Shown here one piece after another: positions 2,513-36,226 of a stretch of 64,000 nt of DNA. The position numbers and the translations under genes are program-made. The notes beneath the pieces are model-generated. The model ran no database searches. It had not been told where the DNA came from and saw only the letters and a program-made list of their open reading frames with translations. The stretch is from Candidatus Marinacidobacterales bacterium. GTDB lineage: Bacteria; Acidobacteriota; Vicinamibacteria; Marinacidobacterales; SMYC01. The stretch lies in NCBI GenBank assembly GCA_965224085.1, contig CBDCYI010000004.1, positions 1,312,001 to 1,376,000 of the forward strand. Direction: 5' to 3'. Within the stretch, counting starts at the first letter, position 1; the number at the start of each line of letters is the position of its first letter.

Positions 2513-2521
2513 TGGCTCGAG

Positions 2522-3997: not shown

Positions 3998-4257
3998 GCT
4001 TCCTTACGAAACAGCTGGAAGATCCGGTCCGCTTCAAGCGGGTCAAGCTCTGGTTCTACGTCGGCCTGGTCGTGGTCGTTGCGACCGAGATCGTTCTGCC
4101 GCTTGTGTTCCACGGAGGCGACCACCACTTCTCGTTCGAGAGCTGGCCTGCCTGGGGCTCTCTCTATGGGTTGATCTCTTGCGTAGCGATCATCGTGGTG
4201 TCCAAGCTCATCGGAAAAGTGTGGCTGACGCGCCCCGAGGACTACTATGACGATTGA
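3994..4257 (+). CDS. Small 2-TM membrane protein coupled between two antiporter-like subunits
   Basis: 87 aa, two hydrophobic segments, C-terminal RPEDYYDD; overlaps both neighbours. Confidence 0.75.
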   Translation: MSFLTKQLEDPVRFKRVKLWFYVGLVVVVATEIVLPLVFHGGDHHFSFESWPAWGSLYGLISCVAIIVVSKLIGKVWLTRPEDYYDD

Positions 4258-8915: not shown

Positions 8916-8955
8916 ATATCGGCCGTCCTGTATATTGGCATCGAGGCAATCACCA

Positions 8956-9309
8956 GTGACCGAATATATCGGAATCGCAGTGAGCATCGTCATGGCCGCA
9001 GGGATCACGGGGATGTTGGTGCTTCTGGGCTCTACGCTTGGGAAAAAGAATCCGAGCGCCGTCAAGCTGGCGCCGTTCGAGTGCGGCCAACAACCCTTCT
9101 CCCTGCCGATGGGCAGGTTGGTGATCAAGTTCTATCTCGTCGCGATCCTGTTCATCCTGTTCGACGTCGAGCTCGTCTTTCTCTACCCGTGGGCGGTCGT
9201 GTACCGCACGCTCGGGACCTTGGGCCTGGTCGAGATGGGAGTTTTTCTCGGGGTGCTGATGGTGGGCTTTGTCTACGCGTGGGCCAACGGTGCCCTAGAT
9301 TGGAAATGA
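8956..9309 (+). CDS. nuoA: NADH-quinone oxidoreductase subunit A
   Basis: PFECG, FYLVAILFILFDVE, FLYPWA; GTG start at 8956. Confidence 0.95.
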   Translation: MTEYIGIAVSIVMAAGITGMLVLLGSTLGKKNPSAVKLAPFECGQQPFSLPMGRLVIKFYLVAILFILFDVELVFLYPWAVVYRTLGTLGLVEMGVFLGVLMVGFVYAWANGALDWK

Positions 9310-9324
9310 AGACTGGAAGTGAAT

Positions 9325-9843
9325 ATGCCGGAAATGCCGTCTTTTCTCACAAGTCGACTCGATGAAGCCCTGGGCTGGGCTCGGAAGTTCTCGATTTTCC
9401 AATACCCGTTCGTGACGGCTTGCTGCGGGATGGAGTACATGGCAACGGCCTGCTCTCACTACGATGTCGACCGCTTCGGAGCCGGCCTCCCCAGATTCTC
9501 GCCGCGCCAGTCCGACGTTCTCTTCGTGGTCGGTACGATCAGTCACAAGATGGCTCCGGTCTTGGTGCGCATCCATGAGCAGATGGCCGAGCCCAAGTGG
9601 GTGGTCGCCTTCGGCGTCTGCACCTGCACGGGCGGTTTCTACGACAACTACGCGACCGTGATGGGCATCGATACGGTCATGCCGGTGGACGTCTACATAC
9701 CAGGATGCCCGCCGCGGCCGGAGATGGTCCTCGACGGCCTGATGAAGCTCCAGAACAAGATCCAGAACGAGCGCACGAGCGGCAAGCGGCCGACGCCCGA
9801 AGAGCGCCCGGAGGAGCTATTGAAAGGGCGAATCGAGGTATGA
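9325..9843 (+). CDS. nuoB: NADH-quinone oxidoreductase subunit B
   Basis: TACCGME, SPRQSD, GVC, VDVYIPGCPPRPE (cluster N2 ligands). Confidence 0.96.
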   Translation: MPEMPSFLTSRLDEALGWARKFSIFQYPFVTACCGMEYMATACSHYDVDRFGAGLPRFSPRQSDVLFVVGTISHKMAPVLVRIHEQMAEPKWVVAFGVCTCTGGFYDNYATVMGIDTVMPVDVYIPGCPPRPEMVLDGLMKLQNKIQNERTSGKRPTPEERPEELLKGRIEV

Positions 9844-10424
9844 ATACCTCTTCCCTGATCGAGTCGGTGACCAAGCGCTTTCCCGATGGCGTGTCGGCTT
9901 CCCACAACTACCGGGGCGACGCGACCGTCGTTGTGCGGCCGGGCTCGCTTCTCGACGTGGCTCGCTTCCTCAAGGAAGACCCGGACTTCTCGATGAACTT
10001 CCTCGTGGACGTGACCGCCGTCGACTACTCGGCTTTCGGCAAAGCGCCGGCTCCAGCTTTCTTCGCCTCCTCCGGAGTAGCCGTGACACCCATGTCTCAG
10101 ATTCCGGATCTCGACCCGTGGCCCGGGCCGCCGGACAAAGCGCGCTTCGTGGTCGTCTACCACTTCTACTCGATGGCCAAAAAGCACCGGCTACGACTGC
10201 AGATTCTGATAGAAGACGAAACCTCCCCGGAGGTGGATTCTCTGACGTCGCTCTGGCCCGGAGCCAACTGGCTGGAGCGCGAGGTCTGGGACATGTTCGG
10301 GATCGGTTTTCGCGGGCATCCCGACCTCAAGCGCATCCTCATGTACGAAGAGTTCGAAGGCCACCCGCTGCGCAAGGACTATCCCGTCAGCAAGCGCCAG
10401 CCCCTAATAGGACCCGTCAACTAG
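9840..10424 (+). CDS. nuoC: NADH-quinone oxidoreductase subunit C
   Basis: DVTAVDY, ANWLEREVWDMFG, HPDLKRIL, GHPLRKDYP; ATG at 9840. Confidence 0.95.
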   Translation: MNTSSLIESVTKRFPDGVSASHNYRGDATVVVRPGSLLDVARFLKEDPDFSMNFLVDVTAVDYSAFGKAPAPAFFASSGVAVTPMSQIPDLDPWPGPPDKARFVVVYHFYSMAKKHRLRLQILIEDETSPEVDSLTSLWPGANWLEREVWDMFGIGFRGHPDLKRILMYEEFEGHPLRKDYPVSKRQPLIGPVN

Positions 10425-10426
10425 AC

Positions 10427-11785
10427 ATGACCACGCACACGACTCCCAACAAGGCCGCGCGTCTCGAAACACGGGAAATGATGCTCAACATCGGTCCCGC
10501 ACATCCGGCCATGCACGGCATCGTCCGTCTCGTGACCAGGCTCGAGGGCGAGGAGATAAGAGGGGCCGAAGTGGAGATTGGCTACCTCCACCGCGGCTTC
10601 GAGAAGATGGCGGAAACCGTCGACTATAACGGCGTCATGCCCTACACCGACCGGCTCAACTATGTATCGCCGCTGATCAATAACATGGGCTACTGCATGA
10701 CGATGGAGAAGCTCTTGGGGATCGAAGTCCCTGAGCGCTGCCACTACATTCGGGTCATTCTTTCGGAGATCTCGCGGATCGGGGACCATCTCACCTGCGT
10801 GGGTGCGACCGCCATGGAGCTCGGGGCGTTCACTGTCTTTCTCTACATGATCAAGGCCCGGGAATACCTCTGGGATCTCGTGGAGAAGGTGACCGGGGCA
10901 AGGATGACCGTGAGCTACTGCCGCGTCGGCGGCGTAAAGGCAGACCTGCAGGACGATTTCGCCGAGCCCTGCAAAAAGGCGTTCGTGGAGACCCGCAAAG
11001 TCCTTGAGGAAACGCACGGGCTCTTGACGCGCAACCGCATCTTCACCGATCGTATGAACGGCACCGGGGTGATTTCCGCCGAAGACGCCATCTCTTACGG
11101 GATCACGGGCCCCTTCCTTCGCGCCACCGGCGCGGAGTACGACGTCCGCAAAGACTGCCCGTACGCTGTCTACGATCGCCTGCCCTTCGACGTGCCGGTA
11201 GGGACCCGAGGCGACAACATGGATCGCTACCTCGTCCGCATGGAAGAGATGGAGCAGTCGATACGCATCGTGGAGGCCGCTCTTCGCGACCTGCCACCTG
11301 GACCGGTGCTGACCAACCCGGAAACCGGGCGCCCGATCCCCGCCGCCGAGATGGTCGACCTCGCCAAGGTGGGGAACATCGACGCCATCTCGGGCGGTTG
11401 CGCCGTCGCCGGTCCGACGCTCGAAGGTTCCGGTCGGGCTCAGCATCCGTCGATTGCAGCGGACCAGAAACAAGTCTTCCTGCCGGCAAAGGAGGACACC
11501 TACGGGAACATCGAAGGGCTGATGCAGAATTTCAAGCTGGTCATGTACGGCCACGGCGTGCGGGCGCCGAAGGGTGAGGTCTATTTCCCGGTGGAAGGGG
11601 CCAATGGGGAGCTGGGGTTTTACGTCGTGAGTGACGGAAGCGGAGGGCCCTACCGATTGCGTTGTCGCCCGCCCTGCTTCGCCATCATGTCGGCGCTGCC
11701 CATACTCCTCGAGGGGGACATGGTGTCCGACCTCATTCCTACTTTCGGCTCAGTGAACATGATCGGTGGGGAGCTCGACCGTTGA
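10427..11785 (+). CDS. nuoD: NADH-quinone oxidoreductase subunit D
   Basis: NIGPAHPAMHG, GYLHRG, DRLNY, EGANGELG, GELDR; no NiFe CxxC motifs. Confidence 0.95.
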   Translation: MTTHTTPNKAARLETREMMLNIGPAHPAMHGIVRLVTRLEGEEIRGAEVEIGYLHRGFEKMAETVDYNGVMPYTDRLNYVSPLINNMGYCMTMEKLLGIEVPERCHYIRVILSEISRIGDHLTCVGATAMELGAFTVFLYMIKAREYLWDLVEKVTGARMTVSYCRVGGVKADLQDDFAEPCKKAFVETRKVLEETHGLLTRNRIFTDRMNGTGVISAEDAISYGITGPFLRATGAEYDVRKDCPYAVYDRLPFDVPVGTRGDNMDRYLVRMEEMEQSIRIVEAALRDLPPGPVLTNPETGRPIPAAEMVDLAKVGNIDAISGGCAVAGPTLEGSGRAQHPSIAADQKQVFLPAKEDTYGNIEGLMQNFKLVMYGHGVRAPKGEVYFPVEGANGELGFYVVSDGSGGPYRLRCRPPCFAIMSALPILLEGDMVSDLIPTFGSVNMIGGELDR

Positions 11786-13575
11786 AACTGTCTGATCTCG
11801 AAGGCAAAGCTGCGGAGATTCTCGAGCGCTACGAGTACCCCAAGGCGGCCATGCTGCCTCTCTTGTGGCTCGTTCAAGAGCATCAAGGCTACGTCGCACC
11901 GGACGCAGAGGACTGGGTCGCAGGTATCTTGGGAGTGTCCCGCTCCAAGGTGCGCGAGGCCGTCTCCTTCTACAACATGTTCCACACCAAGCCGGTGGGC
12001 CGGCGCGAGCTCCGCGTCTGCACGAGCTTGCCGTGCATGCTGCGCGGCTCCGGCAATCTGCTCAATCGAATCGAGAAAGCGTTGAACATCCGCCCCGGCG
12101 AGACCACCCCTGGGGGCGAGGTGACCCTCACCGAAGTCGAGTGCTTGTGCGCCTGCGAAATGTCGCCCATGGCTCAACTCGACGAACGCTTCGTCGGTCC
12201 TCTCGAAGGCGAAACGGTCGGCATGATCGTCCACGACGCGCTGACAGAGCCCGCTAGCCCGGAGTCGACCCCGGAGCCCACGCCCTACATCTCTACGGAT
12301 GGGCCGGTGCTTTCTCTGCACTTCGAGAATCCCGATGGGACATGGATGGATAGCTACGTGGCCGATGGCGGGTACGTCGCGGCCAAGAAGGCACTCACCT
12401 CGTTGACGCCGAAGCAGGTGACCGACGAGGTTCTTGGTGCCAATCTACGCGGACTGGGCGGCGCAGGGTTCCCCACCGGTAGGAAGTGGTCGTTCATCCC
12501 CGCGGACACGGACAAGCCAAAATACCTCGTTGTCAACGCCGACGAGGGCGAGCCCGGTACCTTCAAGGACCGCTACCTCATGGAGCGCGACCCACACGCG
12601 CTGCTCGAAGGCATGCTTATCGCCGCTTACGCCATCGACTGTCACAAAGCCTATGTCTATATCCGCGGTGAGTACTTCCGATCGGCACATCGCCTACAGC
12701 GCGCCATCGACGAGGCCCACGAAAGCGGCTGGCTTGGCAAGGACATAAAGGGGACGGGTTTCGATCTGGATGTCGTCATCCACCGCGGCGCGGGGGCGTA
12801 CATTTGCGGCGAAGAGACGGCGCTTCTGACCTCGCTCGAAGGGGGGAAGGGCTTTCCACGGCTCAAGCCCCCCTTCCCTGCGATCTCGGGTCTCTTCTCC
12901 TGCCCTACGATCGTTAATAATGTTGAGACCCTGTGCTGTGTGCCGTTCATTCTGCGCCAAGGAGTCGATCGATTCAAGGAGATCGGCACCGAGACTCAGG
13001 GCGGCACGCGTCTGTTCTGCGTCAGCGGGCACGTGGTCACGCCCGGCGTCTACGAGGCGCCGGTCTCTATCACACTACGAGAGCTGATCGAGAGGGCCGG
13101 TGGTATCCGCGACGGCAACCAGCTCAAGGCCGTTATCCCCGGAGGCATCTCGGCCAAGATCCTGACCGCCGATGAGATCGACGTTGCCATGGACTTCGAT
13201 TCCCTCCGCGCCGCAGGCACCATGGCCGGGTCCGGAGGTGTCATCGTCATGGACGATACCACGTGCATGGTGGAGGCGCTGGCGTCGGCCGCCAAGTTCT
13301 TCGCGGACGAGTCGTGCGGACAGTGCTCGCCGTGCCGTGAAGGAACCGGCTGGGTACTTCGTATCGTGCACCGCATCCTCGAAGCGCGGGGGAAGGTTCA
13401 GGACCTGGATGACCTGCTCGCCATCGCCGGCGACATGGAAGGAAAGACCATCTGCGTTTTCGCGGATGCGGCCGCATGGCCGGTGCAATCCTACATCGTG
13501 AAATTCCGGAGCGAGTTCGAGGAGTACATCCGCACGGAGCGTTCCATCCGAAGCACCCAGGCCGCCCATGCCTAG
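11782..13575 (+). CDS. nuoEF: Fused NADH-quinone oxidoreductase subunits E and F
   Basis: N-terminal NuoE ligands CTSLPC/CLCAC, then a Pro/Thr/Glu linker, then NuoF motifs GGAGFPTG, NADEGEPG, YICGEET, CGQCSPC...C. TTG start overlaps the nuoD stop. Confidence 0.93.
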   Translation: MKLSDLEGKAAEILERYEYPKAAMLPLLWLVQEHQGYVAPDAEDWVAGILGVSRSKVREAVSFYNMFHTKPVGRRELRVCTSLPCMLRGSGNLLNRIEKALNIRPGETTPGGEVTLTEVECLCACEMSPMAQLDERFVGPLEGETVGMIVHDALTEPASPESTPEPTPYISTDGPVLSLHFENPDGTWMDSYVADGGYVAAKKALTSLTPKQVTDEVLGANLRGLGGAGFPTGRKWSFIPADTDKPKYLVVNADEGEPGTFKDRYLMERDPHALLEGMLIAAYAIDCHKAYVYIRGEYFRSAHRLQRAIDEAHESGWLGKDIKGTGFDLDVVIHRGAGAYICGEETALLTSLEGGKGFPRLKPPFPAISGLFSCPTIVNNVETLCCVPFILRQGVDRFKEIGTETQGGTRLFCVSGHVVTPGVYEAPVSITLRELIERAGGIRDGNQLKAVIPGGISAKILTADEIDVAMDFDSLRAAGTMAGSGGVIVMDDTTCMVEALASAAKFFADESCGQCSPCREGTGWVLRIVHRILEARGKVQDLDDLLAIAGDMEGKTICVFADAAAWPVQSYIVKFRSEFEEYIRTERSIRSTQAAHA

Positions 13576-15208
13576 CCTGAGCCGCTTGACCATTGACGGC
13601 CGCGAGATCACCGTTCCCGAAGGAACCACGGTCATCCAGGCGGCGGAGCAGCTCGGGATCTTCATTCCTCGCTACTGCTACCACCCCGGCCTATCGATCG
13701 CCGGCAACTGCCGCATCTGTCTCGTCGAAGTCGAGAAATCCCCCAAGCTGGAGATCGCCTGCAACCTGGCGGTTCGGGAGGGGATGGTCGTGCACACCCA
13801 GAGCGACGAGGCCGAGGACGGGCGCCGGTCCGTGCTGGAGTTTCTCCTCGCCAACCACCCGCTCGACTGCCCGGTCTGCGACCAGTCCGGTGAATGCGAC
13901 CTGCAGAACTTCTACATGAACTTCGGGCTCTACGACCCGAGGTTCCGGGAGCAGAAGGTCAAGAAGAAAAAGGCCGTGGAGCTAGGCCCCCATGTGATGC
14001 TTGACCAGGAGCGCTGTATCCTGTGCTCCCGCTGTGTGCGCTTCACAGACGAGATTACCGAGACCGGTGAGTTCGGCATCTTCAACCGCGGCGACCGGGC
14101 GGAGCTTGGGATCTATCCTGGTGAGGTGCTCGACAATCCCTACTCGGCGAACGTGGTGGACATCTGTCCGGTCGGCGCCCTAACCGAGAAGGACTTCCGC
14201 TTCGCGGCCAGGGTCTGGTACCTGTCGAGCGCCCCAACCGTCTGCAACGGCTGCAGTCAAGGCTGCAACGTCGATCTACACTTCGTGCTCGACAGGCCTC
14301 ATCTGAACGACGGGGCTAGGCTCGTGCGCATCAAGCCCCGCTACAACCCGGACGTCAACCAATGGTGGTTGTGCGACGAGGGGCGCTACGGCTTCGGCTG
14401 GCTGGATCAGGCACGGATCACGAAAGTGCGGCAGGGGCCGGCGGCGGACGGAGCGAACGGAGATGCAACCTGGGAGCAGGCCCTCACCGCAATCTCGATG
14501 ACCCTGGCGGAGTTGGACAAGGGCCGGATCGCCGTGATGGCCTCGGCTCAGCTCACCAACGAAGAGCTCTTCCTGATCCGAGAGATTCTCCAGAATTCCC
14601 TGGGAGCCCGAGTCAGCGCCTCCGTTTCAGACAAGCCCGGCTCGGCCGACGACTTTCTCATCAAGGGCGACAAGAATCCCAACACTCGGGGAGCGACGCT
14701 GTTGGGTTTGGCCGGCCCCGAGGCACCGGATGCCGAACAGATCATGGACGAGGCCGCCTCTGGGAACCTCGGTGCCCTATGGGTCTTCGGGCACGATCTG
14801 GTGGAGCTCTTTGGCGAGGAAAGAGTTCGGGAGCTCGCAAAGAAAGTGGGTCTCTTCGTCTTGTCGGGCACCAACGACAACGCGACCGTGCCGTTCGCCC
14901 ATTGGGTACTGCCGAGCGCCGCCTACATGGAGAAGGATGGCACCTTCGTCAACTGTCACGGCCGCGTCCAGCGCATCGGCCGGGCCTTCGCACCTCTCGA
15001 GGACGCGCGTGAGGATTGGCGCGTTCTCCTGGATTTAGCCGGGCGGTTGGGTCAGTCGCTGAACTGGCGCGGACCGCAAGAGATCTTCGACGGCTTGGCC
15101 AAGGCGTCTAGCCTCTTCGGGGGATTGAGCTACGACGCCATCGGCGCGCAAGGGGCTGACATTACGACAGCCGCTCCCGCTACTGAGCTTGACGCGGTCG
15201 AGCCATGA
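13568..15208 (+). CDS. nuoG: NADH-quinone oxidoreductase subunit G (short form, 546 aa)
   Basis: GNCRIC, HPLDCPVCDQSGEC, CILCSRC, DICPVGAL, CNGCSQGC...C. Confidence 0.93.
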   Translation: MPSLSRLTIDGREITVPEGTTVIQAAEQLGIFIPRYCYHPGLSIAGNCRICLVEVEKSPKLEIACNLAVREGMVVHTQSDEAEDGRRSVLEFLLANHPLDCPVCDQSGECDLQNFYMNFGLYDPRFREQKVKKKKAVELGPHVMLDQERCILCSRCVRFTDEITETGEFGIFNRGDRAELGIYPGEVLDNPYSANVVDICPVGALTEKDFRFAARVWYLSSAPTVCNGCSQGCNVDLHFVLDRPHLNDGARLVRIKPRYNPDVNQWWLCDEGRYGFGWLDQARITKVRQGPAADGANGDATWEQALTAISMTLAELDKGRIAVMASAQLTNEELFLIREILQNSLGARVSASVSDKPGSADDFLIKGDKNPNTRGATLLGLAGPEAPDAEQIMDEAASGNLGALWVFGHDLVELFGEERVRELAKKVGLFVLSGTNDNATVPFAHWVLPSAAYMEKDGTFVNCHGRVQRIGRAFAPLEDAREDWRVLLDLAGRLGQSLNWRGPQEIFDGLAKASSLFGGLSYDAIGAQGADITTAAPATELDAVEP

Positions 15209-16299
15209 TCGAAATCCTGGCCATAAAGGTCGCTCTGGCGGGAATGGTCTTTCTCGCGGTCCTGAATCTGGCCGGGTTTCATACCTGGGTGGAGCGCAAG
15301 CAGTCAGCCCTCATCCAGGACCGCATCGGGGCCAACCGCGCTAGCATCTTTGGCTTTCGGGCGCTGGGACTCTTCCATGGCCTCGCCGATCCGATCAAGA
15401 TGTTCACCAAGGAGGACATCGTCCCGACCGGAGCGGACAAGGTCCTCCATACTCTGGCCCCGTTCTTCTCGGTCTTTTTCGCCTTGGTGACCTTTGCCGC
15501 GATTCCCTTCGGTGACCAGCTCATCCTTTTCGACCGCGTCATCGACCTGCAGGTGGCTAAAATCAACGCGGCGCTGCTCTACGTCTTCGCCATGCTCTCC
15601 CTCGGAGTCTACGGCGTGATCCTCGCCGGCTTCGCTTCGCGCAACAACTACGCGATCATGGGCGGGCTGAGAGCAACCGCGCAGATGATCTCGTATGAGA
15701 TTGCTCTGGGCATCTCCATCGTCGGCGTGATCATGGTCTACGGGACCATGGACCTGGCCGAGCTGGTGCGGGCCCAGGGATACATGATCGGCGGGTGGAT
15801 CCCGATGTGGGGAATCGTCACCCAGCCTGTCGCTTTCATCGTCTTTTTGACCGCGGCCCTCGCTGAGACCAAAAGAGTCCCCTTCGACCTACCGGAAGCA
15901 GAGTCGGAGATCATCGGGTACTTCGTCGAGTACAGCGGCATGAAGTTCGGAATGTTCTTCCTCACCGATTTCCTCGAGACCATCGTGGTGGCGTGCCTCG
16001 CAACGACCCTCTTCTTCGGCGGATGGCAAGTGCCCTTCCTCTTGCCGGACGGCTTCCACTTCCCCTGGGGAGGAGAGCTCCAGCTCGCCAACTGGTTCTA
16101 CGCGCTCCTCGGAGTGACGAGCTTCTCGATCAAGGTCTTGATCTTCTGCTTCGTGTTCATGCAGATACGATGGACCCTGCCGCGCTTCCGCTACGATCAG
16201 CTCATGAGCCTCGGCTGGAAAGGGCTCTTCCCGATCGCAGTGGCCAACACCGCGCTCACCGCAGTCGTGCTAGTTATCTTCTTCGGGGAGAGCACCTGA
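15205..16299 (+). CDS. nuoH: NADH-quinone oxidoreductase subunit H
   Basis: ERK, DRIG, ADPIKMFTKE, AQMISYE, RVPFDLPEAESE, PRFRYDQL. Confidence 0.96.
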   Translation: MIEILAIKVALAGMVFLAVLNLAGFHTWVERKQSALIQDRIGANRASIFGFRALGLFHGLADPIKMFTKEDIVPTGADKVLHTLAPFFSVFFALVTFAAIPFGDQLILFDRVIDLQVAKINAALLYVFAMLSLGVYGVILAGFASRNNYAIMGGLRATAQMISYEIALGISIVGVIMVYGTMDLAELVRAQGYMIGGWIPMWGIVTQPVAFIVFLTAALAETKRVPFDLPEAESEIIGYFVEYSGMKFGMFFLTDFLETIVVACLATTLFFGGWQVPFLLPDGFHFPWGGELQLANWFYALLGVTSFSIKVLIFCFVFMQIRWTLPRFRYDQLMSLGWKGLFPIAVANTALTAVVLVIFFGEST

Positions 16300-16928
16300 T
16301 GGCCGTCAAAGTCGTCCGCAGGCCTGAGCTGACCTTCTGGGAGAAGACCTATCTCCCCCAGATCCTCTCCGGCCTCAAGATCACCTTTTCGCACTTCTTC
16401 CGTAACCTCTTCCTCCATATCGCCCACCTCTTTGGCCGTCTCCTGCATCTTCGCGCCAGCGCCACCATCCAGTATCCCGAAGAGCTAAGGCCACTCATGT
16501 CGAGGTACCGAAGCCGCCACCGACTCACCGTACGCGAGGACAACACCCCGCGCTGTGTGGGCTGCATGCTCTGTGAGACGGTGTGTCCGGCCAAATGCAT
16601 CACCATCGTGCCGGACGAGCACCCAGACCCAAACGTCGAGAAGTACCCGATCCGCTTCGACATCGACCTGGGCGTCTGCGTCTATTGCGGATACTGCGTC
16701 GAGGTCTGCCCTGAGGACGCGATCCGCATGGACACGGGAATCCTCGACCTAGCCGCCTACTCGAGGGAAGCCATGCGGCTCGATATCCATGAGCTGATGG
16801 ACCCATCGCTGCGCAAACCGATCACCGACTGCAGCCTGGACTTCCCGCACCAGTGCGCGCCGACAGGGGGAAAGATGAAGGGCAGCTGGAGCGTCGACAG
16901 GGCGCAAACCGAGTCTGTAGAACGATGA
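16299..16928 (+). CDS. nuoI: NADH-quinone oxidoreductase subunit I
   Basis: TIQYPEE; two ferredoxin motifs, CVGCMLCETVCP and CVYCGYCVEVCP. Confidence 0.95.
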   Translation: MAVKVVRRPELTFWEKTYLPQILSGLKITFSHFFRNLFLHIAHLFGRLLHLRASATIQYPEELRPLMSRYRSRHRLTVREDNTPRCVGCMLCETVCPAKCITIVPDEHPDPNVEKYPIRFDIDLGVCVYCGYCVEVCPEDAIRMDTGILDLAAYSREAMRLDIHELMDPSLRKPITDCSLDFPHQCAPTGGKMKGSWSVDRAQTESVER

Positions 16929-17929
16929 GCCGCCTACATCTGGCCAAGGAGATCATGGTGACGAAGCTCGTCACCGTAGGTCCGGAAGACGACGTGCTAT
17001 GGGGCATTGGTCGACTTCTTGACCGTCGCATCAGCGGCGCCCCAGTGGTCGGTAGCGGCCGGCGCTATCTCGGCATGCTTTCGGATCGCAGTTGCATGAA
17101 AGTCCTCTACGAGACGGCTCGCGAGGCTCGGGTGGAGACGATCCATCTTCCCCAAGCGCGCGCGTTCATGTCGAAGAAGCTCTTCACTCTGAGCCCGGAA
17201 ACCGACGCCATCGAAGCGATCTCGAGGCTGCTCAAGCAACGTTTCTCGGGGGCTCCCGTCGTCAACGAGAAGGGGAATTTTTTGGGGGTCTTCTCCGAAC
17301 GCTACATCATGCGATTGCTGATCAACTCGGCCTACGAGCAGGTACCGTCCACCCGAGTGGACGCGTTCATGAACACGGACCGCGGCCGACTGATTGAAGG
17401 GACAATGGACCTTCTCGAGGTCGCTCGGATGTTCCACGACACGTATTACCGGCGGCTACCCGTCATGAAGGACGGAAAATTGATCGGCCAGATCAGCCCG
17501 TTCGACGTTCTCAGTGCCGAGCATCACCTGGCCCGCTCCGTCAAGGGTCGCTGGCGGAGCCTGCTGGACCATCGTCTGGTACGGACCCTCGCCGAGCTAT
17601 GGCGTGGCGGCGGAAAGCCACCTTCGATGCAGATCTCCCAGTTCATGGACACCTCCGCCGAGACGATCGAGGAGGACTTGGATCTCCTGGCGATCGCCAG
17701 AATCTTCCTCGACTCCAACCGTCGTCGCCTCCCGGTTCTGCGCGAAGGCGAGCTGGTCGGCCAGATCAGCCGCCGCGATCTACTGCACGAGGTGCTCGAC
17801 CTGCTCTCGGAACAACCGCACCGCGAGCGACCCGGCCTATTCCTGAGCGCTGTCACGAACCCTGCTGAGAACCCGATCTTGCGGGACAGTCAACATCCGA
17901 GCGCCGGATCGTCGCAGCACCGCTCCTGA
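16925..17929 (+). CDS. Four-CBS-motif protein, translationally coupled to nuoI
   Basis: ISGAPVV, FSGAPVV, YRRLPV..GQIS, RRRLPV..GQIS; ATGA overlap with nuoI. Confidence 0.88.
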   Translation: MSRLHLAKEIMVTKLVTVGPEDDVLWGIGRLLDRRISGAPVVGSGRRYLGMLSDRSCMKVLYETAREARVETIHLPQARAFMSKKLFTLSPETDAIEAISRLLKQRFSGAPVVNEKGNFLGVFSERYIMRLLINSAYEQVPSTRVDAFMNTDRGRLIEGTMDLLEVARMFHDTYYRRLPVMKDGKLIGQISPFDVLSAEHHLARSVKGRWRSLLDHRLVRTLAELWRGGGKPPSMQISQFMDTSAETIEEDLDLLAIARIFLDSNRRRLPVLREGELVGQISRRDLLHEVLDLLSEQPHRERPGLFLSAVTNPAENPILRDSQHPSAGSSQHRS

Positions 17930-25728: not shown

Positions 25729-27679
25729 CTTAAGCGGAGCTTCCGCCGGCTAGACGCATGTAAACCCGTACGTTTAAAGCAGATGTGGCCGTTCTAAGTG
25801 TAATCAGTACGCATGTAATAATAACGGTATGGTTGATAATGCTGATTAGATCCTGTATAGTCGGCGCATGTACATCGCCAAGGTGCCGAACCGTAACTCG
25901 CCCCCAGCGATTCTCATTCGCGAAAGCTACCGCGAAGGCGGTAAGCCCAAAACGAGGACCGTCGCCAACATCTCGAAGTGGAAGCCCGCTCGAATTGAAG
26001 CTCTTCGCCAGTTGCTGAAGGGCAACGTGGATTTGGGTGAGGCTCAGCAATTCGAGATCACCAGAAGCAAACCTCACGGACATGTTGCGGCCGTGCTGGG
26101 AACGCTGCGCAAAGTTGGCCTCGAGCGAATCATCCATAGCCGCCAGCGCCGAGAGCGTGACCTCGTGGTGGCGATGATTGTGGCGCGAATCGTAGAGCCG
26201 GGCTCCAAGTTGGCCACGGCCCGTGGTCTATCGAAACAGACCTTGACTTCGTCTTTGGGTGAGTGTGTTGGAGTTGAAGACTCCAACGAGGATGAGTTGT
26301 ATGAGGCCCTGGATTGGCTTTTGAGCCGCCAAGCTGCCATAGAGAAGAAACTGGCGAAACGCCATCTGCAGCAGGGCAGCTTGGTTCTCTACGACTTGAC
26401 GTCGACTTGGGTGGAAGGTCGGTCGTGCCCTCTGGCGAAGCTCGGTTACTCGAGAGACGGCAAGAAAAACAAACTGCAGATCGTGTTCGGCTTACTGTGT
26501 GAGCGTAATGGTCGGCCGGTCGGGGTAGAGGTGTTCGAAGGCAACACCGGAGATCCCGCAACACTGGGGAGCCAAATTCGCAAAGTCCGAGAACGTTTTG
26601 AGCTTGACAATATCGTCTTCGTAGGTGACCGAGGGATGATCACCGAAGCTCGGATTCGCGAGGAACTTCGACCAGAGGAAGGTCTCGAGTGGATCAGCTC
26701 ACTTCGTGCCCCGCAGATTCAGCGACTTGCAAAAGACGGAATGCTACAGCCTTCTCTGTTCGATGAGGTCGACCTAGCGGAGATCCATCATCCTAACTTT
26801 CCTGGTGAGCGACTCATTGCTTGTCGCAACCCTCTTCTTGCTGCCGAGCGGGCACGGAAACGGGAAGAGATGCTTGTGTCGACGGAGTCGAAGCTAGAAG
26901 TGATTCGCAAAGCGACGAAGCGAGACCAGCGTCCTTTGCGAGGCAAAGATACCATCGGCATACGATTGGGTCGAGTGTTCGCTCGGAGCAAGATGGGCAA
27001 GCACTTTCGCTACACCATTACGGACGACAGCTTCGACTTCGAGCGCGACAACGATAACATCGAGCGTGAGGCGACCCTCGACGGTATCTATATCATTCGT
27101 ACAAGCCTCACCGAAGAGGCCATCTCCGCAGACGAAGCTGTCAAGACCTACAAAGGCTTGGCAGTCGTTGAACGCGCTTTTCGTTGCTGCAAAACCGTGG
27201 ATTTGAAAGTACGGCCCATCTATCACTACAACGCTGAGCGAGTTCGAGCTCACATCTTTCTTTGCATGCTCGCCTACTACGTGGAATGGCACATGCGAAA
27301 AGCCCTCGCCCCGATCTTGTTTGACGACGACGACACTGACGGTGCCCAAGCCAAACGCTCATCCATCGTCAGCCCAGCAACGTCTTCAGACTCCGCCCAG
27401 GCAAAGGCTTCTACCAAGAAGTCTCCCGATGGGTTGCCCGTCCACAGTTTCAGAACGCTTCTTTCTGATCTTGCTACGGTCACGAAAAATCAAGTCGAAA
27501 ACGACGCCCGCGGCCTGTCCTTCGTCAGCGTTACTCGCCCTACACCCTTGCAGCACAAAGCATTCAACCTCCTCGGAATCAATCCCCGCACGATGTAAGC
27601 AGTACACACGCCTCTCTTAAAAAACAAGACTAATGATGCCAACACTTACGCTTGTTCATCTGTGGAAGTTCCGCTTAAG
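25729..27679 (+). mobile_element. IS1634-family insertion sequence
   Basis: Ends cttaagcggagcttcc and ggaagttccgcttaag form a 16-bp inverted repeat with 1 mismatch. The outer palindromic CTTAAG may be the target duplication. Confidence 0.88.
25868..27598 (+). CDS. IS1634-family transposase
   Basis: LYDLTSTWVEG, GYSRDGK, VFVGDRGMI, YKGLAVVERAFR, RPIYH, RVRAHIFLCMLAY. Confidence 0.93.
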   Translation: MYIAKVPNRNSPPAILIRESYREGGKPKTRTVANISKWKPARIEALRQLLKGNVDLGEAQQFEITRSKPHGHVAAVLGTLRKVGLERIIHSRQRRERDLVVAMIVARIVEPGSKLATARGLSKQTLTSSLGECVGVEDSNEDELYEALDWLLSRQAAIEKKLAKRHLQQGSLVLYDLTSTWVEGRSCPLAKLGYSRDGKKNKLQIVFGLLCERNGRPVGVEVFEGNTGDPATLGSQIRKVRERFELDNIVFVGDRGMITEARIREELRPEEGLEWISSLRAPQIQRLAKDGMLQPSLFDEVDLAEIHHPNFPGERLIACRNPLLAAERARKREEMLVSTESKLEVIRKATKRDQRPLRGKDTIGIRLGRVFARSKMGKHFRYTITDDSFDFERDNDNIEREATLDGIYIIRTSLTEEAISADEAVKTYKGLAVVERAFRCCKTVDLKVRPIYHYNAERVRAHIFLCMLAYYVEWHMRKALAPILFDDDDTDGAQAKRSSIVSPATSSDSAQAKASTKKSPDGLPVHSFRTLLSDLATVTKNQVENDARGLSFVSVTRPTPLQHKAFNLLGINPRTM

Positions 27680-28493: not shown

Positions 28494-29532
28494 ATGACCA
28501 TGCACAGCACTCTTTTTAAAACCGTGGGTGTCGTCGCGACGATTCTCGTTGCAGCCTGCACCGACCGAGTCCGTTCAATGCGTGACGACGAATCCAGAGA
28601 CGAAAGCAATATCTTGTTGACGGAGAGTTACGGACAAGACGTCCGGCGAGCATATCGGCGTCTGGTATCTCGACCCCTATGCTCGACCAGGAAAACGCTC
28701 CGGAGCCTGGGCGACCACCTATCGCAGCCACGAGACGTTCGACGGCAAGAAGACGGTGCTCGGTTCGAACAACTCGAACTTTATCAAAGGAGCACTTGGG
28801 GAGCCGGTGCTCGTTTCCTGGGACGATGCCGAAACGCTGTTCCACGAGTTCGGCCACGCGCTGCACTATTTCTCGTCGACCGTCGAATATCCCACGCTCA
28901 ATAGCGGCGTGCGGGACTACACGGAGTTTCAGTCGCAGCTTCTGGAGCGGTGGCTACTGACGGACGCGGTGATCGAGACTTACCTCGTTCACCATGAAAC
29001 GGGCGAGTCGATCCCGGAAGAGCTCGTGGCGAAGATCAAGAAGGCTTCGACGTTCAACCAAGGCTTCGAGACGACGGAGTATCTCGCTTCCGCGCTCGTG
29101 GACATGAAATATCACACCACCGATCCGACGGGCATCGACCCCGACGCTTTCGAGCGCGATGCGCTTTTGGAGCTGAGCATGCCGAGCGAGGTCGTGATGC
29201 GGCACCGAAGCCCGCATTTCGGGCACATCTTCTCCGGCGAGGGCTATTCGGCCGGCTACTACGGCTACCTATGGGCTGACGTGCTCACGTCCGATGCTGC
29301 TGAGGCCTTCCAAGAGGCGCCGGGCGGCTTTTACGACAAGGACATGGCGAAGAAACTCGACGACCATTTGTTTGCCGTACGCAACGCGGTCGACCCGGAC
29401 GACGCCTATCGCGCTTTCCGCGGTCGCGATGCCCGGATCGACGCGCTCATGAGAGACCGCGGCTTTCCCGTCCCGGGCGAAAAGGGGAACGCATCCACAG
29501 AGTCGCAGGCCGGACCGATCTCAGGACGCTGA
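28494..29532 (+). pseudogene. dcp: M3 peptidase (peptidyl-dipeptidase Dcp-like lipoprotein) with a large internal deletion
   Basis: Lipoprotein signal (LVAAC) and NILLTE are joined out of frame at about 28620 to YLDPYARPGKRSGAW...FHEFGHALH...HIFSGEGYSAGYY...FRGRD. Confidence 0.82.
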
Positions 29533-29650: not shown

Positions 29651-30214
29651 CTATTCCAACACCTTTCGGATCATTTCCTCGAGCTCGATCCTGTAGAAAA
29701 ATCGCTCCGGATCCTCGTCAAGCCTTTGATGCAGCCAACCAACGGGTGGGCTCGGCTGAGCGTCCCATTCGGCATTCGCATCGTAAACGAGATAGACGTC
29801 CCACGCCATGTCCATCTTCGTTCCGAGAACGGGAGCGAGAGCGTCCCCGACGGCCTGCGAGCCATCGAAGTAATGCGTTGCGCGCTCGTCGGGGATCAGA
29901 TTCTTCGCCTCGATCGCCGCTTCGTAGCTGTCGTTGTGAGTCGCATCGATCCAGACCGCGAAGACCTCGAGCCGATCATCGTCTATCTCGCTCAACACCT
30001 TCTGCACCGCACGGGCGCCTCGCACGCACGAGCCTCACGTGGGGGAGAGAACGGTGATGAGTCGCGGGCGGCCTTTCGACGTGTTGAAATCGGAAACTAG
30101 AGGCGCGAGCGCGCGATCGATCTGCTTCACCGCGTCCTCGGCGTGGACGTGAGACGGTGACGGCGCCGAGAGCATGGCCGCGGCGAGACCGACACTAACA
30201 CGGATTCGATTCAC
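29651..30214 (-). CDS. Putative secreted thioredoxin-like selenoprotein (UxxC, in-frame TGA at 30035-30037)
   Basis: AAGGAGG RBS, GTG 30214, signal peptide (VHA-ED), DFNTSKGRPRLITVLSPT-TGA-GSC, then an open frame to TAG at 29651. Confidence 0.8.
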
Positions 30215-30387
30215 GAGTGCCTCCTTCTAAACTGCGGACCTTCCAGGGCCATATATAGCTGCCCCGCGCCTTCCAGCTTGTCGTCTTTCGCTGCTGGTGG
30301 TCCCGACCCTCATGCACTATAACGCTCCACATGGAAGTGTCACGTTGACATTCATATGATGAATGCACGCAACCTCTTTGCCTTGGG

Positions 30388-30844
30388 TCACGGCCCTCGT
30401 CCGAGCAGTCGAAGAAAAATCATGGCGTGCGTTACCAAGAGTAGCGGCACAACGAATGTCGGGATGTACCAAGTCGTCTGAAGATGCGGGACAGCTTCCG
30501 CATGGCGCAGTGCGTTTAGAAGGTCTACTGTGCCGACAGTGTTGAAAAGCCAAACCAACGGAAGCGTCCTCGAAGGGCTGCGAGACACAATAGTGCGAGC
30601 AGGCCGGTGACAAAGTCGCCATAGGCAGCCGGGGGGCAAAAGAGCTCGGCAGAGGTTGAGCCACCAATCCCGGGACCAAAAACGCCAGTCCTAAATGCCG
30701 GAACGCATGGGGGACGATCAGGGGGATCAATCCCTCGTCGATGGTTTTCTCGGCCAGCCACGGCGTCACGTACCATTTCGCCAGCAGAGCGTACACAATA
30801 AGGCTCAAGACAAGCTGCAGACCAAAAATTGTTAGCGTATCCAT
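30388..30844 (-). pseudogene. Membrane protein, frameshifted twice
   Basis: PHAFRHLGLAFLVPG, AAYGDFVTGLLA and LVWLFNTVGTVDLL..WYIPTFVVPLLLVTH lie in three successive frames. Confidence 0.7.
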
Positions 30845-30871: not shown

Positions 30872-31573
30872 TTAGTGCGGCGTCACTGCGTCGGCCGACC
30901 AGCCTTCAGCTTCCATGCGATCTCGGCCGTCGTCGATACCGCGTTCGAGATGACCGGATGTCGGCAGAAGCAGAAGCTTCTTCTGCTCCGCCGCTTCGCG
31001 CCAGTCACTACTGTCGTGGGCGAGCACGGGCTCCCGCAACATCGGATGACCGCGGTCCCGCTCCCAGCGATCGAGATCCGGCGCGCGGGTCAGCATCATC
31101 TTGACCGTGAAGGCAAGAGCTCCGAGCTTCGTTCCTGCTCGCAGGCCAGGTGCGATCAGATCAGGCTGGGCGATGTATCGTCGAGCGATCGACTCGAAAG
31201 GCTCCGGCGGCCTGCCGCAGACCTCTTGAACGTGTTCGGTCGGCGCTCCGACCGCAAACGTACCACCACGAAGCTCCTCGAAGTAGAAACGAAGATGGGC
31301 GATCTCGAAGGCCGAGACTCCCTGCGCCGTCGCTGCCTTCTGAAACATCTTGAGGGACGCGTCCTGGTACTTGACCTTGCGACCGACCACTTCGGTGAGA
31401 ACGTTGGCCACGTCGGAAGGCGAGATGAGCTTGGGACCCGTTGGACGGTAACACATGCCAATATGAGCAGATGGTTCAGCGAGCACTCCTGCCGCCACAC
31501 TGCCAATGTCTTCGCTGGAGGGCGGAGCGTTGAGCCCATCACCCCAGGGCCCAACGAGCATCCCAAAGTGCAC
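30872..31573 (-). pseudogene. NmrA-like NAD(P)-binding protein, N-terminal Rossmann half missing
   Basis: EDIGSVAAGVL, YRPTGPKLIS, VGRKVKY C-terminal half only; no Gly-rich NAD(P)-binding loop. Confidence 0.7.
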
Positions 31574-31934: not shown

Positions 31935-32202
31935 CGGCCGCGACTATGCCTGGCCTGGAAACGTGCGCGAGCTCGAGCAATGTGTGCGCAACATCGTTAT
32001 TCGCAACGCGTATCGACCGGCCGCAATCGGAGGTGAGACAGAAAGCGTGGTCGACCTGGATCAAGCGGAACTCTCTGCAGAGGAGCTCTTGTCGCAATAT
32101 TGCGCCGTCGTCTACGCACGCACCGGAAGCTATGTCGAAACGGCGCGAAAGCTCGGTCTAGACCGCCGCACGGTGAAGAGCAAAGTAAGAAGCATTTCGT
32201 AA
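31935..32202 (+). pseudogene. 3' remnant of a sigma-54-dependent transcriptional activator
   Basis: YAWPGNVRELEQ plus Fis-type HTH (TARKLGLDRRTV); AAA+ core absent. Confidence 0.78.
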
Positions 32203-34155: not shown

Positions 34156-34742
34156 CTGAGCGGGTGCGCTCCATCGCCTAAAGGCGATGGGTTCGCGGGC
34201 GACTAAAGTCGCCTAAAGGCGCACGGCGGAGGATTACTCGCTTACCCTGAACGACTCGTCGTCTTCCGGCAGCTCTCCTTGCAGCTCGATGTACTTGGCC
34301 ACAACCTCATCGGTCACGTTTCCGCTCGTCGCTACAAAATAGCCGCGCGCCCACAGGTGCCGACCCCAAAACTTCTTGCGGATCGCTCGAAAATCACGCA
34401 TCAGCTTGTGCGATGTCTTCCCCTTGATCGCCTGCATTACTCGGCTCGGCGACAGCCGTGGCGGCACGCTCAGCAACAGATGAACGTGCTCTGGCCGTAC
34501 ATGGCCCTTCAGTATTTCTATGTGGTGCGTCGCACAGATCTCTCTTATCAACTCCCGCAGGCGAAGTGCTACATCTCCTCTCAATACCGGCTTGCGGTAC
34601 TTCGGGATGAATACGAAATGGTAGTTTAATTGATACGTCGTGTGCGATGATTTCCGATATCCTTTCATCCGGGGATCGTACCGCAAGCCTCCTAAAGGCT
34701 TCGCCTGAAGGCGAGGGGTTTCAACCATCCCCGAGTGAGACA
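34156..34742 (-). mobile_element. IS200-type element (tnpA only), inserted 3' of TTAG with no TSD
   Basis: Subterminal hairpins (ccatcgcctaaaggcgatgg; ggcgactaaagtcgcc; tcgcctgaaggcga). Removal restores TTGAACTAAGCCGC. Confidence 0.85.
34234..34668 (-). CDS. tnpA: IS200/IS605-family Y1 transposase
   Basis: YHFVFIPKYRK, HVH (HUH), KGKTS, LWARGYFV, catalytic YI..Q. Confidence 0.95.
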   Translation of the reverse strand: MKGYRKSSHTTYQLNYHFVFIPKYRKPVLRGDVALRLRELIREICATHHIEILKGHVRPEHVHLLLSVPPRLSPSRVMQAIKGKTSHKLMRDFRAIRKKFWGRHLWARGYFVATSGNVTDEVVAKYIELQGELPEDDESFRVSE

Positions 34743-34978
34743 CTAAGCCGCCCAGCTAGCGGCAACTATGCATAAATTGGAGTGAGAAGACGGTCGGACA
34801 GGAAGTCGGAGTTGGACGTCAGGGAGTTGCGAATCGACAGAGATATGGCGGGGAAGATAGAAGAAGGGCCTACCCGGTGCGGTAACCACCACGGTAGCGT
34901 TATGAGTTCGCGACGAGACACACGAGTCCGTTTCAACGACCGGTCGGCGTTGTGAGAGGCGGAGCGAAAGCATCGTGA

Positions 34979-36226
34979 TCATGACTCATCTGGAGGGGAG
35001 CGGATCTGGAGGTTGATCCGTCGAAGCTTCGTGGAGAGAGGGCATCGGAGCATGCGACCTTTCTTGCAGCGGGGACAGATGGTGAGGTCGATGCCGGTGA
35101 GCTCCTTGAGCCGCTCGCGCCAGTCCTTGTCCTCGGTGGCACGCGAGCTGACTTGCACGTCGTCGGCGTCGGTCGTGGGTTTTGTTTTCTCATCGAGCAA
35201 CTGGCGCGCGACTACGAGCTTGGTGGTCGCATTGGAGGAGGCCATTAAGCCGAAATGGCGAATCTTGACGAAACCTTTCGGCAGTACGTGCAGGAGGAAA
35301 CGGCGGATAAATTCCTCTGGGGGGACGGTAACGGTATTACCATTCTTGGTGGCGAAGCAGACGCCGTAGTGGTCGATGCGAATGAGTCGGCGGTTGGAGA
35401 TGCCGACCCGGTGGGTATATCGGCCGAGGTAGTTGAAAACCTGCTCTGGGCCACCGAAGGGTCGTTTGCTGTAAACGACCCAATCGATGCGGTAGAGCTT
35501 GTCTTTCAGCTCCCGGAAGCGAGGTGGGTTTCTGAGGTGGGAAGCGTTTGCGCTCAACTCAAGCTCATCTTGGTCGTAAGCGAGCCTAAGGGCATCGAGA
35601 AACTTGCTGCGAAAAAGCCGCGACATGGCCTTGACGGGAAACAGAAAGCGAGGGTTTGCGGCGTTCCACAGCTGCTGAGGGTGGTTGAGCCCGCCCCCGG
35701 AGACGATGCAATGCAGGTGTGGATGGAACAGGAGCTTCCGGGTCCAGGTGTGCAGTACGGCGGTGAAGGCAAGTTGAGCTTCGAGCCGGCTTTGGCCGAA
35801 CTCCAATAGAGTTCGCGAGGCGGCGCGAAACAGGAGGTTGAACATGAACTTGGGATTGTCTCGGGCGAGAGGCTTGAGTTGCTGCGGGAGGGTGAAAACG
35901 ACGTGGAAATAGTGAGTCGGAAGAATCCTCTGAGCTCGCTGCTCCATCCACTTCGCCTGGGCTAGGCTCTGACACTTGGGACAGTGCCGATTGCGGCACG
36001 AGTTAAACGAAGGCGCCGCGTATCCGCAAGCGTTACACACGTCGAGATGGCCACCTAGCACCGCCGTGCGACAGTTCTCTATAGCCCACATCACCTTGCG
36101 CTGCTCGGCTGTCAGCGCATGGGTTTGGCGAAAGCGTGGACCATGTTCGCGGAAGATTTCCGCGATCTCGAGCAGTGGCCGTGGTGGTGACTCGACGCGG
36201 GAAGGACACAGCCCATGGGGCTGCAT
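34979..36226 (-). CDS. IS91-family (Y2) transposase with a Zn-binding domain
   Basis: CRT..LGG, SCRNRHCPKC, HVVFTLP, LHTW..HPHLH, YLGRY, IRHFG, CPRC. Confidence 0.94.
   Translation of the reverse strand: MQPHGLCPSRVESPPRPLLEIAEIFREHGPRFRQTHALTAEQRKVMWAIENCRTAVLGGHLDVCNACGYAAPSFNSCRNRHCPKCQSLAQAKWMEQRAQRILPTHYFHVVFTLPQQLKPLARDNPKFMFNLLFRAASRTLLEFGQSRLEAQLAFTAVLHTWTRKLLFHPHLHCIVSGGGLNHPQQLWNAANPRFLFPVKAMSRLFRSKFLDALRLAYDQDELELSANASHLRNPPRFRELKDKLYRIDWVVYSKRPFGGPEQVFNYLGRYTHRVGISNRRLIRIDHYGVCFATKNGNTVTVPPEEFIRRFLLHVLPKGFVKIRHFGLMASSNATTKLVVARQLLDEKTKPTTDADDVQVSSRATEDKDWRERLKELTGIDLTICPRCKKGRMLRCPLSTKLRRINLQIRSPPDES

Follow-up and report, generated by a model that had tools for sequence, protein, structure and literature searches.

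A predicted exported thioredoxin-fold protein with an in-frame UGA in Acidobacteriota: evidence for an apparently new UxxC selenoprotein family

The subject of this account is a gene in a 64,000-nucleotide stretch of DNA (the whole of which is referred to here as the window) from a Candidatus Marinacidobacterales bacterium of the Acidobacteriota (GenBank assembly GCA_965224085.1, contig CBDCYI010000004.1, positions 1,312,001 to 1,376,000 of the forward strand). The gene takes up 187 codons of the minus strand, within which the sole in-frame stop is a TGA at codon 60 (coordinates of this and of the other features are collected in Table 1). It very probably encodes a real secreted redox protein with selenocysteine at the in-frame UGA, and apparently represents a new selenoprotein family of a well-known kind, the thioredoxin-fold proteins with a UxxC motif (U being selenocysteine).

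A preliminary description of the window had reported a strong ribosome-binding site and a GTG start, a signal peptide, a single TGA at codon 60, a frame otherwise free of lesions, and a GC-rich hairpin downstream of the TGA. The ribosome-binding site, the start codon, the frame (which stays open through to a TAG terminator) and the hairpin are all present, and the N-terminus is signal-like when read by eye, having a basic n-region (MNRIR), a 10-residue hydrophobic core (VSVGLAAAML) and a stretch ending in a V-H-A cleavage-type site (SAPSPSHVHA, followed by ED); it can be regarded as a putative Sec-type (secretory) signal peptide. By a crude test, an N-terminal hydrophobic run is also present in 53 of the 80 family members of single-domain size. 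The promoter candidate listed in Table 1 matches the sigma-70 consensus, one such site being seen where shuffled sequences would lead one to expect 0.3. The motif around the TGA reads LITVLSPT-U-GS-C, and a list of open reading frames (ORFs) made with translation table 11 splits the gene at this point into pieces of 59 aa (30035-30214) and 124 aa (29651-30025).

Relatives of the gene product were sought among proteins as well as genomes. A word-based search of 5.8 billion proteins gave eight, of which six (48-55% identity) start just past the CxxC position; another, 92% identical (P0002), is without the N-terminal part and has a different, out-of-frame N-terminus, and the sole full-length relative (P0009) is a Cys form, SPTCSQC. 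An exhaustive phmmer search of 1.84 billion cluster representatives gave 1,215 matches at E<=1e-3 (465 at E<=1e-10). Most of the best 150 of these representatives span the site with a near-invariant LLSPT-CxxC, the first Cys of which is exactly where the TGA falls in the window gene, while eight begin at query residues 63-73. An independent 59-aa N-terminal database protein (P0015), 98% identical, stops where the TGA of the window stands.

A scan of genome collections with an alignment of the nine closest sequences led to 36 loci (L numbers in what follows), in which the codon at the first-Cys position was taken by in-frame translation and a script, the four loci without a script match (L015, L022, L029 and L035) being read by hand. 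The script alone gave TGA in 25 loci and TGC in seven. With the readings by hand the count is 26 TGA, eight TGC, one Ser and one unreadable: L022 has CPVC (TGC) with a frameshift directly after it, L029 has SxxS at the motif, and the N-terminal part of L035 is unrecognisable. Neither TAA nor TAG was found at this codon in any of the 36 loci. The loci with TGA come from Acidobacteriota, Gemmatimonadota and Planctomycetota, with one metagenome-assembled genome (MAG) of Desulfobacterales and one of Promineifilaceae. Pairing of Cys with TGA among homologues, which the preliminary description had suggested as a check, is therefore evident, and the adverse outcome that it had envisaged, in which all homologues would carry Cys, is not what these 36 loci present.

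The part of the gene upstream of the TGA seems to have been kept as carefully as the part downstream, in that F43, R51, S57 and P58 are as conserved as residues beyond the TGA, and the window gene keeps every near-invariant residue of the family. The two residues in the middle of the motif vary in close relatives (UGTC, UGKC, UHNC, UPRC, USKC). To judge from these comparisons, the placing of a TGA on the first Cys of the family is more than chance, because the position is exactly that of the first Cys in a near-invariant CxxC, because the same codon is TGA in 26 of 36 loci, and because P0015 ends there. Genome-wide reassignment of TGA can be set aside, as it still serves as an ordinary terminator: 23 of the 42 ORFs with Pfam support in the window end in it, as do 13 of 19 relatives of the gene.

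A quick maximum-likelihood tree was made from 156 domain sequences, comprising 21 selenocysteine (Sec) forms and seven Cys forms from the window and loci, and 128 Cys protein segments (excluded were the frameshifted L032 and L033, L013 and L031, which are cut by contig ends, L034, the four motif-less loci, and protein segments either shorter than 120 residues or without C..C near the start). The window sequence groups with L001-L011, every one of them from Acidobacteriota, in a clade of 12 (SH-aLRT 99) made up entirely of Sec forms, and its branch length is 0.34, compared with a median of 0.43. The Sec label needs at least seven changes on the tree, two of which are forced by well-supported branches alone, so Sec and Cys have been swapped repeatedly. 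Read in this way, the TGA is ancestral and not a lesion.

The RNA just downstream of the UGA can form a hairpin resembling a selenocysteine insertion sequence (SECIS), in one of two forms. In group A (the window and 19 loci) the consensus GCGCC-CGUGN-GGUGC folds into a stem of 5 bp and a loop of 5 nt; it starts 16 nt after the UGA, with 21 nt from UGA to loop, and the loop has G as its second nucleotide and U or G as its third. All 100 pair cells of the 20 sequences are standard pairs, so that every sequence is paired throughout, and RNAalifold predicts exactly this 5-bp apical stem, with no conserved lower stem. One pair shows compensatory change, C-G being replaced by G-C in L012 and by U-A in L023; G-U has become G-C in L020 and L023. 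When the 3' arm is shifted by 1-3 columns, pairing falls to 22-63%. The gene's own copy is the only perfect match to the hairpin pattern in the window, where one other match, with two mismatches, lies at 14091 (shuffle mean 2.7). In the bacterial SECIS model, as quoted in a 2026 review with a catalogue of prokaryotic selenoproteins (PMC13188914), the loop is 3-9 nt, the stem at least 4 bp, a G stands at loop position 1 or 2, the distance from UGA to loop is 16-37 nt, and the minimum free energy is at or below -7.5 kcal/mol; the hairpin of group A has this geometry. Group B (L016, L018, L021, L031, L032 and L033, mostly from Gemmatimonadota and Thermoanaerobaculia), a sister group, has at the same site a different stem of 7 bp with a small G-rich loop, 10-31 nt after the UGA, which is 97.6% paired and has two pairs changed on both sides. 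A frameshift in L032 and L033 lies in the G-run of this second hairpin, and could be an assembly error or decay.

Since the peptide encoded by the group A hairpin (G-A-R-V-V-Q) is itself conserved, synonymous positions had to be compared. Across 19 group A genes (L034 being excluded), third-position conservation in the four stem codons is 0.93, 1.0, 1.0 and 0.94, against 0.63 for the loop codon and 0.28-0.83 for the gene's 22 other conserved degenerate codons; that four named codons should be the top four of 26 by chance has, by our arithmetic, a likelihood of 1 in 14,950. These patterns argue that the hairpin is under constraint at the RNA level, and the case for a putative SECIS is built on its conservation, on covariation and on the constraint at synonymous sites, energy forming no part of it.

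Stem-loops of the fdhF type in Escherichia coli are likewise situated in the coding sequence shortly after the UGA, their small apical loop having G and then U or G close to its start (PMC13188914). The hairpins described here differ in their short stem (5 bp in group A, 7 bp in group B) with no conserved lower stem, in being no more stable than shuffled sequence, and, for the window, in having no match in Rfam at gathering thresholds.

The protein has little to connect it with curated families. The window protein has no significant match in Pfam or NCBIfam, the best being to PF00085 (Thioredoxin) at E=0.25, and the NCBIfam TlpA equivalog NF047696 gave E=0.022 and 14.5 bits against a cut-off of 230; the models considered thus failed to claim it (Thioredoxin, AhpC-TSA, Redoxin and Thioredoxin_8 in Pfam, and TlpA in NCBIfam). 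Among 74 family members at E<=0.01, two touch Redoxin and two touch Thioredoxin_4. None of the NCBIfam (seleno)protein models matches the thioredoxin-like domain, the matches to NF041115 and NF041374 being, in two other members, to a fused heavy-metal-associated (HMA) or GDCCVxC domain. The family profile gave a best E of about 0.1 against PDB sequences, to thioredoxin-like chains, and a search of the ESM Atlas with a natural Cys homologue (P0026) led to clusters named 'hypothetical protein' without a Pfam family.

Structure prediction was more informative. AlphaFold2, given the 74-sequence alignment, returned a model with pLDDT 92.9 and pTM 0.84 (residues 1-28 being lower) and with the strand and helix order of thioredoxin; a strand at 51-56 is followed by a helix at 61-76, with U60 at the start of the helix, so that the predicted fold is that of thioredoxin with the CxxC position at the N-terminus of helix 1. 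Foldseek gave 36 matches in the PDB at E<=0.001, led by DsbF/DsbE of Mycobacterium tuberculosis, ResA, CcmG, SdbA and TlpA-ScoI with glutathione peroxidase (GPx) interleaved among them (TM-scores of 0.36-0.52 for the query, reaching 0.65 for the target; identity 7-22%). When the family profile was compared by hhalign with E. coli CcmG, the probability was 93.3% (E=2.6e-7), with the CxxC motifs aligned and the match ending at residue 127, and comparison with the E. coli GPx BtuE gave 0.2%; by this comparison CcmG is the nearer kin. We considered whether the protein might simply be a glutathione peroxidase, as judged by profile similarity and a U/C...Q...W-N active site, and set the idea aside at the level of sequence, since BtuE scored so low and PF00255 gave no match, the structural neighbourhood being its only support.

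Several motifs characterise the family: SPT-[U/C]xxC, VW, D-x-R-x-x-H-x-WD, AWDVY, PPxP and W-x-HQ. The invariant AWDVY stands before a strand at 140-144, and no conserved Pro is found there, where CcmG has GAPETF with its cis-Pro. The correspondence was made by eye, and suggests a non-canonical surround for the active site.

Proteins of the CcmG/DsbE, ResA and TlpA class, which provide the top Foldseek matches (3ios, 1lu4, 2f9s, 1kng and 4txo), are thus the obvious standard of comparison. All are thioredoxin folds with an N-terminal extension, an inserted helix, and CxxC at the start of helix 1; they are known to be exported or membrane-anchored, and the window protein has its putative export signal. 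It differs from them in its low identity (8-20%), its own motifs, the Trp-Asp that appears (by eye) to replace cis-Pro, and Sec for the first Cys. With the catalogued thioredoxin-fold selenoproteins of the UxxC kind (PMC13188914) it shares the thioredoxin-like fold and the existence of Cys homologues, and it would share Sec at the first Cys and a SECIS within the ORF just after the UGA. That source lists 119 families and subfamilies of prokaryotic selenoproteins, giving a model identifier for each, and many of them are thioredoxin-fold UxxC proteins with a SECIS in the ORF. Its Table 1 includes Sec-containing thioredoxin, peroxiredoxin-like thiol:disulfide oxidoreductase and thiol:disulfide interchange protein, as well as DsbA-like, DsbG-like, Redoxin family and thiol-disulfide isomerase-like proteins and SaoT.

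The Pfam and NCBIfam identifiers given in the catalogue yielded no match to the window protein at E<=1, and none of them matches more than two of the 74 family members at E<=0.01. Novelty is judged here by these identifiers, and one of two catalogue families that are defined only by CDD cd02966 may be identical with the one described here. The UGSC-containing protein of NF041046 was a natural candidate on account of its name; it gave no match at E<=1, and the shared U-G-S-C is incidental, the middle residues varying freely in relatives. No prior description of the family was found in a full-text literature search. The preliminary description took the gene product to be an exported redox protein that contains Sec and belongs to an uncharacterised family, and this is supported by the pairing of TGA and TGC, the conserved hairpin, the thioredoxin-fold model and the lack of cover in Pfam and NCBIfam.

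Relatives of the protein occur in several architectures. Among 60 multidomain homologues, 18 are fused to HMA at one end or the other, two of the 18 also having MerT, and other fusions in this set are to AhpC-TSA (one), an aspartyl protease (one) and Thioredoxin_3 (two). HMA is N-terminal in P0009, L027 and L030, and C-terminal in P0132, which starts just past the Sec position and is apparently a Sec form. One family member has a GDCCVxC (seleno)protein domain.

Some further variants may be mentioned. P0010, P0011 and P0012 (571-708 aa) contain the domain two or three times in tandem, every copy having a CxxC, and in P0010 the copies are combined with HMA and Thioredoxin_3 domains. In the Sec forms L014, L017, L019, L020 and L023 the frame is open for 179-695 codons upstream of the TGA, so that the Sec domain may form the C-terminal end of a longer protein, the N-terminal domain of which matches nothing in Pfam; Cys homologues of about 300 residues (such as P0019 and P0045) share this architecture. 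Two MAGs each have two Sec paralogues on different contigs (L003 and L010 in one, L004 and L011 in the other). On the Desulfobacterales MAG contig (L015:2447-2458) the motif reads TGA-CTA-GCC-TGA, both Cys positions being TGA, which would constitute a double-Sec, UxxU variant. This locus has the group A hairpin, with U-A at the variable pair.

From all of this a mechanism can be proposed. The UGA at codon 60 would be decoded as Sec by SelB and Sec-tRNA, directed by the stem-loop 16 nt downstream within the coding sequence, and the product, exported by its Sec-type signal peptide, would yield a mature protein of about 160 residues with a CcmG/ResA/TlpA/DsbE-type thioredoxin fold. From its place at the N-terminus of helix 1, Sec60 would attack as nucleophile and Cys63 would resolve, the pair cycling between the selenol/thiol and selenenylsulfide states. 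Most likely it would act outside the cytoplasm, reducing (or isomerising) disulfides there. The repeated fusion of relatives to HMA and MerT suggests that Cys pairs of metal-binding proteins would be among the likely clients, for which the action of TlpA on the copper chaperone ScoI (PDB 4txo) provides an analogy.

How firmly should such a proposal be held? A number of observations weigh against it, and several concern the energy of the hairpin. A 66-nt segment of the window folds at z = +0.77, 155 of 200 shuffled sequences being at least as stable, and for 45-nt folds the mean z is +0.46 in Sec forms and -0.02 in Cys forms (Mann-Whitney p = 0.14 for energy, 0.71 for z). The bare apical hairpin has -5.7 to -7.6 kcal/mol (-6.0 in the window copy), and with an enumerator of perfect stems applied to it the cut-off of -7.5 kcal/mol is passed by only four of 26 Sec and one of seven Cys sequences; at -5 kcal/mol the same enumerator passes 25 of 26 Sec and two of seven Cys sequences, and values of -10.9 to -25.8 kcal/mol are reached when lineage-specific lower stems are included. 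Rfam gave no match anywhere in the window at gathering thresholds, and the covariation is thin, coming from a single pair in group A and from two pairs in group B, the group B count of pairs changed on both sides being reached by 111 of 500 shuffles. The Trp-Asp found where CcmG has cis-Pro (again by eye) means that the chemistry may differ from that of classical thioredoxin-fold reductases. Some relatives look damaged (L032 and L033 by frameshifts, L034 with a poor N-terminus), the window gene lies in an insertion sequence (IS)-rich neighbourhood with gene remnants and possible decay, and neither a conserved operon partner nor any other functional clue was found in the eight loci scanned. Nor was decoding machinery seen: tRNA-Sec was not found in the window or the 36 loci, domains of SelA, SelB and SelD are absent from the 52 ORFs of the window (as are sel domains from 86 ORFs of eight loci), and tblastn with E. 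coli SelA, SelB and SelD gave no match in the window and 36 loci (524,197 bases). The window and loci amount to only a few percent of any genome, which makes these last negatives uninformative. The deep-Sep paper (PMC12013277) counts at least one genome of Acidobacteriota as Sec-utilising, with three known selenoprotein genes and no new family reported in it.

Taking these points into account, we judge it distinctly probable that this is an intact selenoprotein gene in which UGA is decoded as Sec to give an exported product with a thioredoxin fold. Were the TGA instead a plain nonsense mutation of TGC in a decaying gene, giving only fragments or nothing at all, one might well expect it to lie, as it does, in an IS-rich patch among truncated neighbours (half of a peptidase M3 gene, an NmrA-like piece, and a membrane ORF spread over three frames) with no Sec machinery visible in 64 kb. 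Such a mutation would not, however, be expected to recur as TGA, never TAA or TAG, in 26 of 36 loci from several phyla and throughout a clade of 12, to leave the rest of the gene intact and the hairpin under RNA-level constraint, or to coincide with the end of P0015, and this explanation seems extremely improbable. The preliminary description had allowed for a decaying region, which is borne out by the IS elements and gene remnants around the gene but not by the selenoprotein gene itself. It is also improbable, if a little less so, that the family is truly one of selenoproteins and that the window copy is no longer expressed or decoded, either because the host has lost the Sec trait or because the gene is stranded among IS elements: the surrounding remnants and transposases, the out-of-frame N-terminus of P0002 and the frameshifts of L032 and L033 are of the kind that this would produce, but the copy has kept a strong ribosome-binding site, an intact signal peptide, hairpin and frame, a promoter-like site upstream, and an ordinary branch length. 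That UGA might be read as a residue other than Sec, whether as Cys by a tRNA-Sec-like tRNA(Cys) or as something else by a suppressor allo-tRNA, is an idea to which the pairing of UGA with Cys would be equally congenial if Cys were inserted, and 8/4 and 9/3 tRNAs that are possible missense or nonsense suppressors have been described in Acidobacteria (PMC5389517). Yet the selC*-type tRNA(Cys) opal suppressors are placed by that same paper in Firmicutes, Thermodesulfobacteria, Nitrospirae and Proteobacteria, and not in Acidobacteria; no such tRNA was found in the window or loci, TGA is still the commonest terminator, and a downstream hairpin at a specific position is a hallmark of SelB-dependent decoding. 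We regard such a reading of the codon as very improbable.

A different kind of alternative grants Sec and questions the chemistry, the UxxC serving as a soft-metal ligand (for Hg or Cu) with HMA and MerT partners, or else the protein being a peroxidase like GPx or peroxiredoxin. In favour of such chemistries one may cite the frequency of HMA (18 of 60 multidomain homologues), the two cases of MerT, the single GDCCVxC domain, the UxxU of L015, the several selenoproteins implicated in Hg and As resistance according to PMC13188914, the presence of GPx among the top Foldseek matches (TM 0.48-0.52, query-normalised) and the want, by eye, of a conserved Pro at the cis-Pro site. The profile comparison, so much in favour of CcmG over BtuE, speaks against a peroxidase, UxxC is a classical redox motif, and no metal gene was found beside the window copy or in the eight loci scanned, so we consider these chemistries rather unlikely. 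The reading in which the protein is a Sec-dependent disulfide oxidoreductase can be combined with the fusions into something broader: an uncatalogued, large, mostly exported thioredoxin-fold family of soil and sediment phyla (Acidobacteriota, Gemmatimonadota, Planctomycetota and Desulfobacterales), with Trp-Asp at the cis-Pro site, repeated exchange of Cys and Sec, two kinds of SECIS hairpin and a UxxU form, which would service HMA and MerT proteins outside the cytoplasm. As a whole this is offered tentatively and as somewhat doubtful; if true, it would tie selenium use to the handling of Hg and Cu in aerobic soil bacteria.

The implications are in part practical. Gene callers split the gene into its 59-aa and 124-aa pieces, and the closest relatives in protein collections are stored only as the C-terminal piece; a whole clade is therefore mis-annotated in these collections, in a family that numbers more than 1,200 representative clusters. 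The work would add a selenoprotein family that is absent from Pfam and NCBIfam and, by model identifier, from the 119-family catalogue (PMC13188914), and would extend the use of Sec in Acidobacteriota and neighbouring phyla, which have been little studied for selenium. The natural Sec, Cys and UxxU variants, with two SECIS types at one site, provide material on the origin of Sec sites. Perhaps the most novel aspect of the finding is the testable link between selenium and extracytoplasmic metal handling that the HMA and MerT fusions suggest.

It remains to describe the surroundings of the gene, which stands alone inside the IS-rich patch (25.8-36.3 kb of the window), flanked by the remnants and transposases listed in Table 1. 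Among the homologous loci, a Ser/Thr kinase is found upstream in L005, L007 and L009, and an LpxA-like acyltransferase downstream in L005, L007 and L010.

Table 1. Features of the selenoprotein gene and of the IS-rich patch around it (positions are those of the window)
Feature	Position	Strand	Basis or remark
Whole coding sequence, 187 codons, with UGA (Sec) as codon 60 and terminator TAG at 29653-29651	29651..30214	minus	ORF reading, homologues, AlphaFold2 model
Shine-Dalgarno AAGGAGG, with 5-nt spacer to GTG start (30214-30212)	30220..30226	minus	Read from sequence
Signal-peptide-like N-terminus, residues 1-25, putative cleavage after VHA	30140..30214	minus	Read by eye
Active-site motif U-G-S-C: TGA 30037-30035 (Sec60), TGC 30028-30026 (Cys63)	30026..30037	minus	Sequence, family alignment
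SECIS-like apical hairpin GCGCC-CGUGC-GGUGC	30004..30018	minus	Pairing and synonymous conservation
Candidate sigma-70-like promoter, GTGACA and TATAGT with a 16-nt spacer between them, about 100 nt upstream of start	30316..30343	minus	Consensus match only
DDE transposase	25868-27598		In IS-rich patch
Peptidase M3 remnant, C-terminal half (profile positions 224-455 of 457)	28756-29532		Convergent, on 3' side of gene
Membrane-protein-like ORFs, split over three frames	30317-30844	minus	On 5' side of gene
Weak NmrA-like C-terminal piece	30872-31573	minus	On 5' side of gene
Regulator helix-turn-helix tail	31963-32202
IS200-like Y1 transposase	34234-34743	minus
IS91-like Y2 transposase	34979-36226	minus

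Finally, we draw attention to two other regions of the window. A complete-looking nuo cluster for NADH:quinone oxidoreductase (1665-17929) has four Proton_antipo_M subunits and a fused NuoE/F-like gene (11662-13575), and is followed by a gene for a CBS-domain protein. At 58141-59940 there is a full-length gene for a peptidase of family M2, the angiotensin-converting-enzyme family (Pfam E=2.6e-229), which is uncommon in bacteria.

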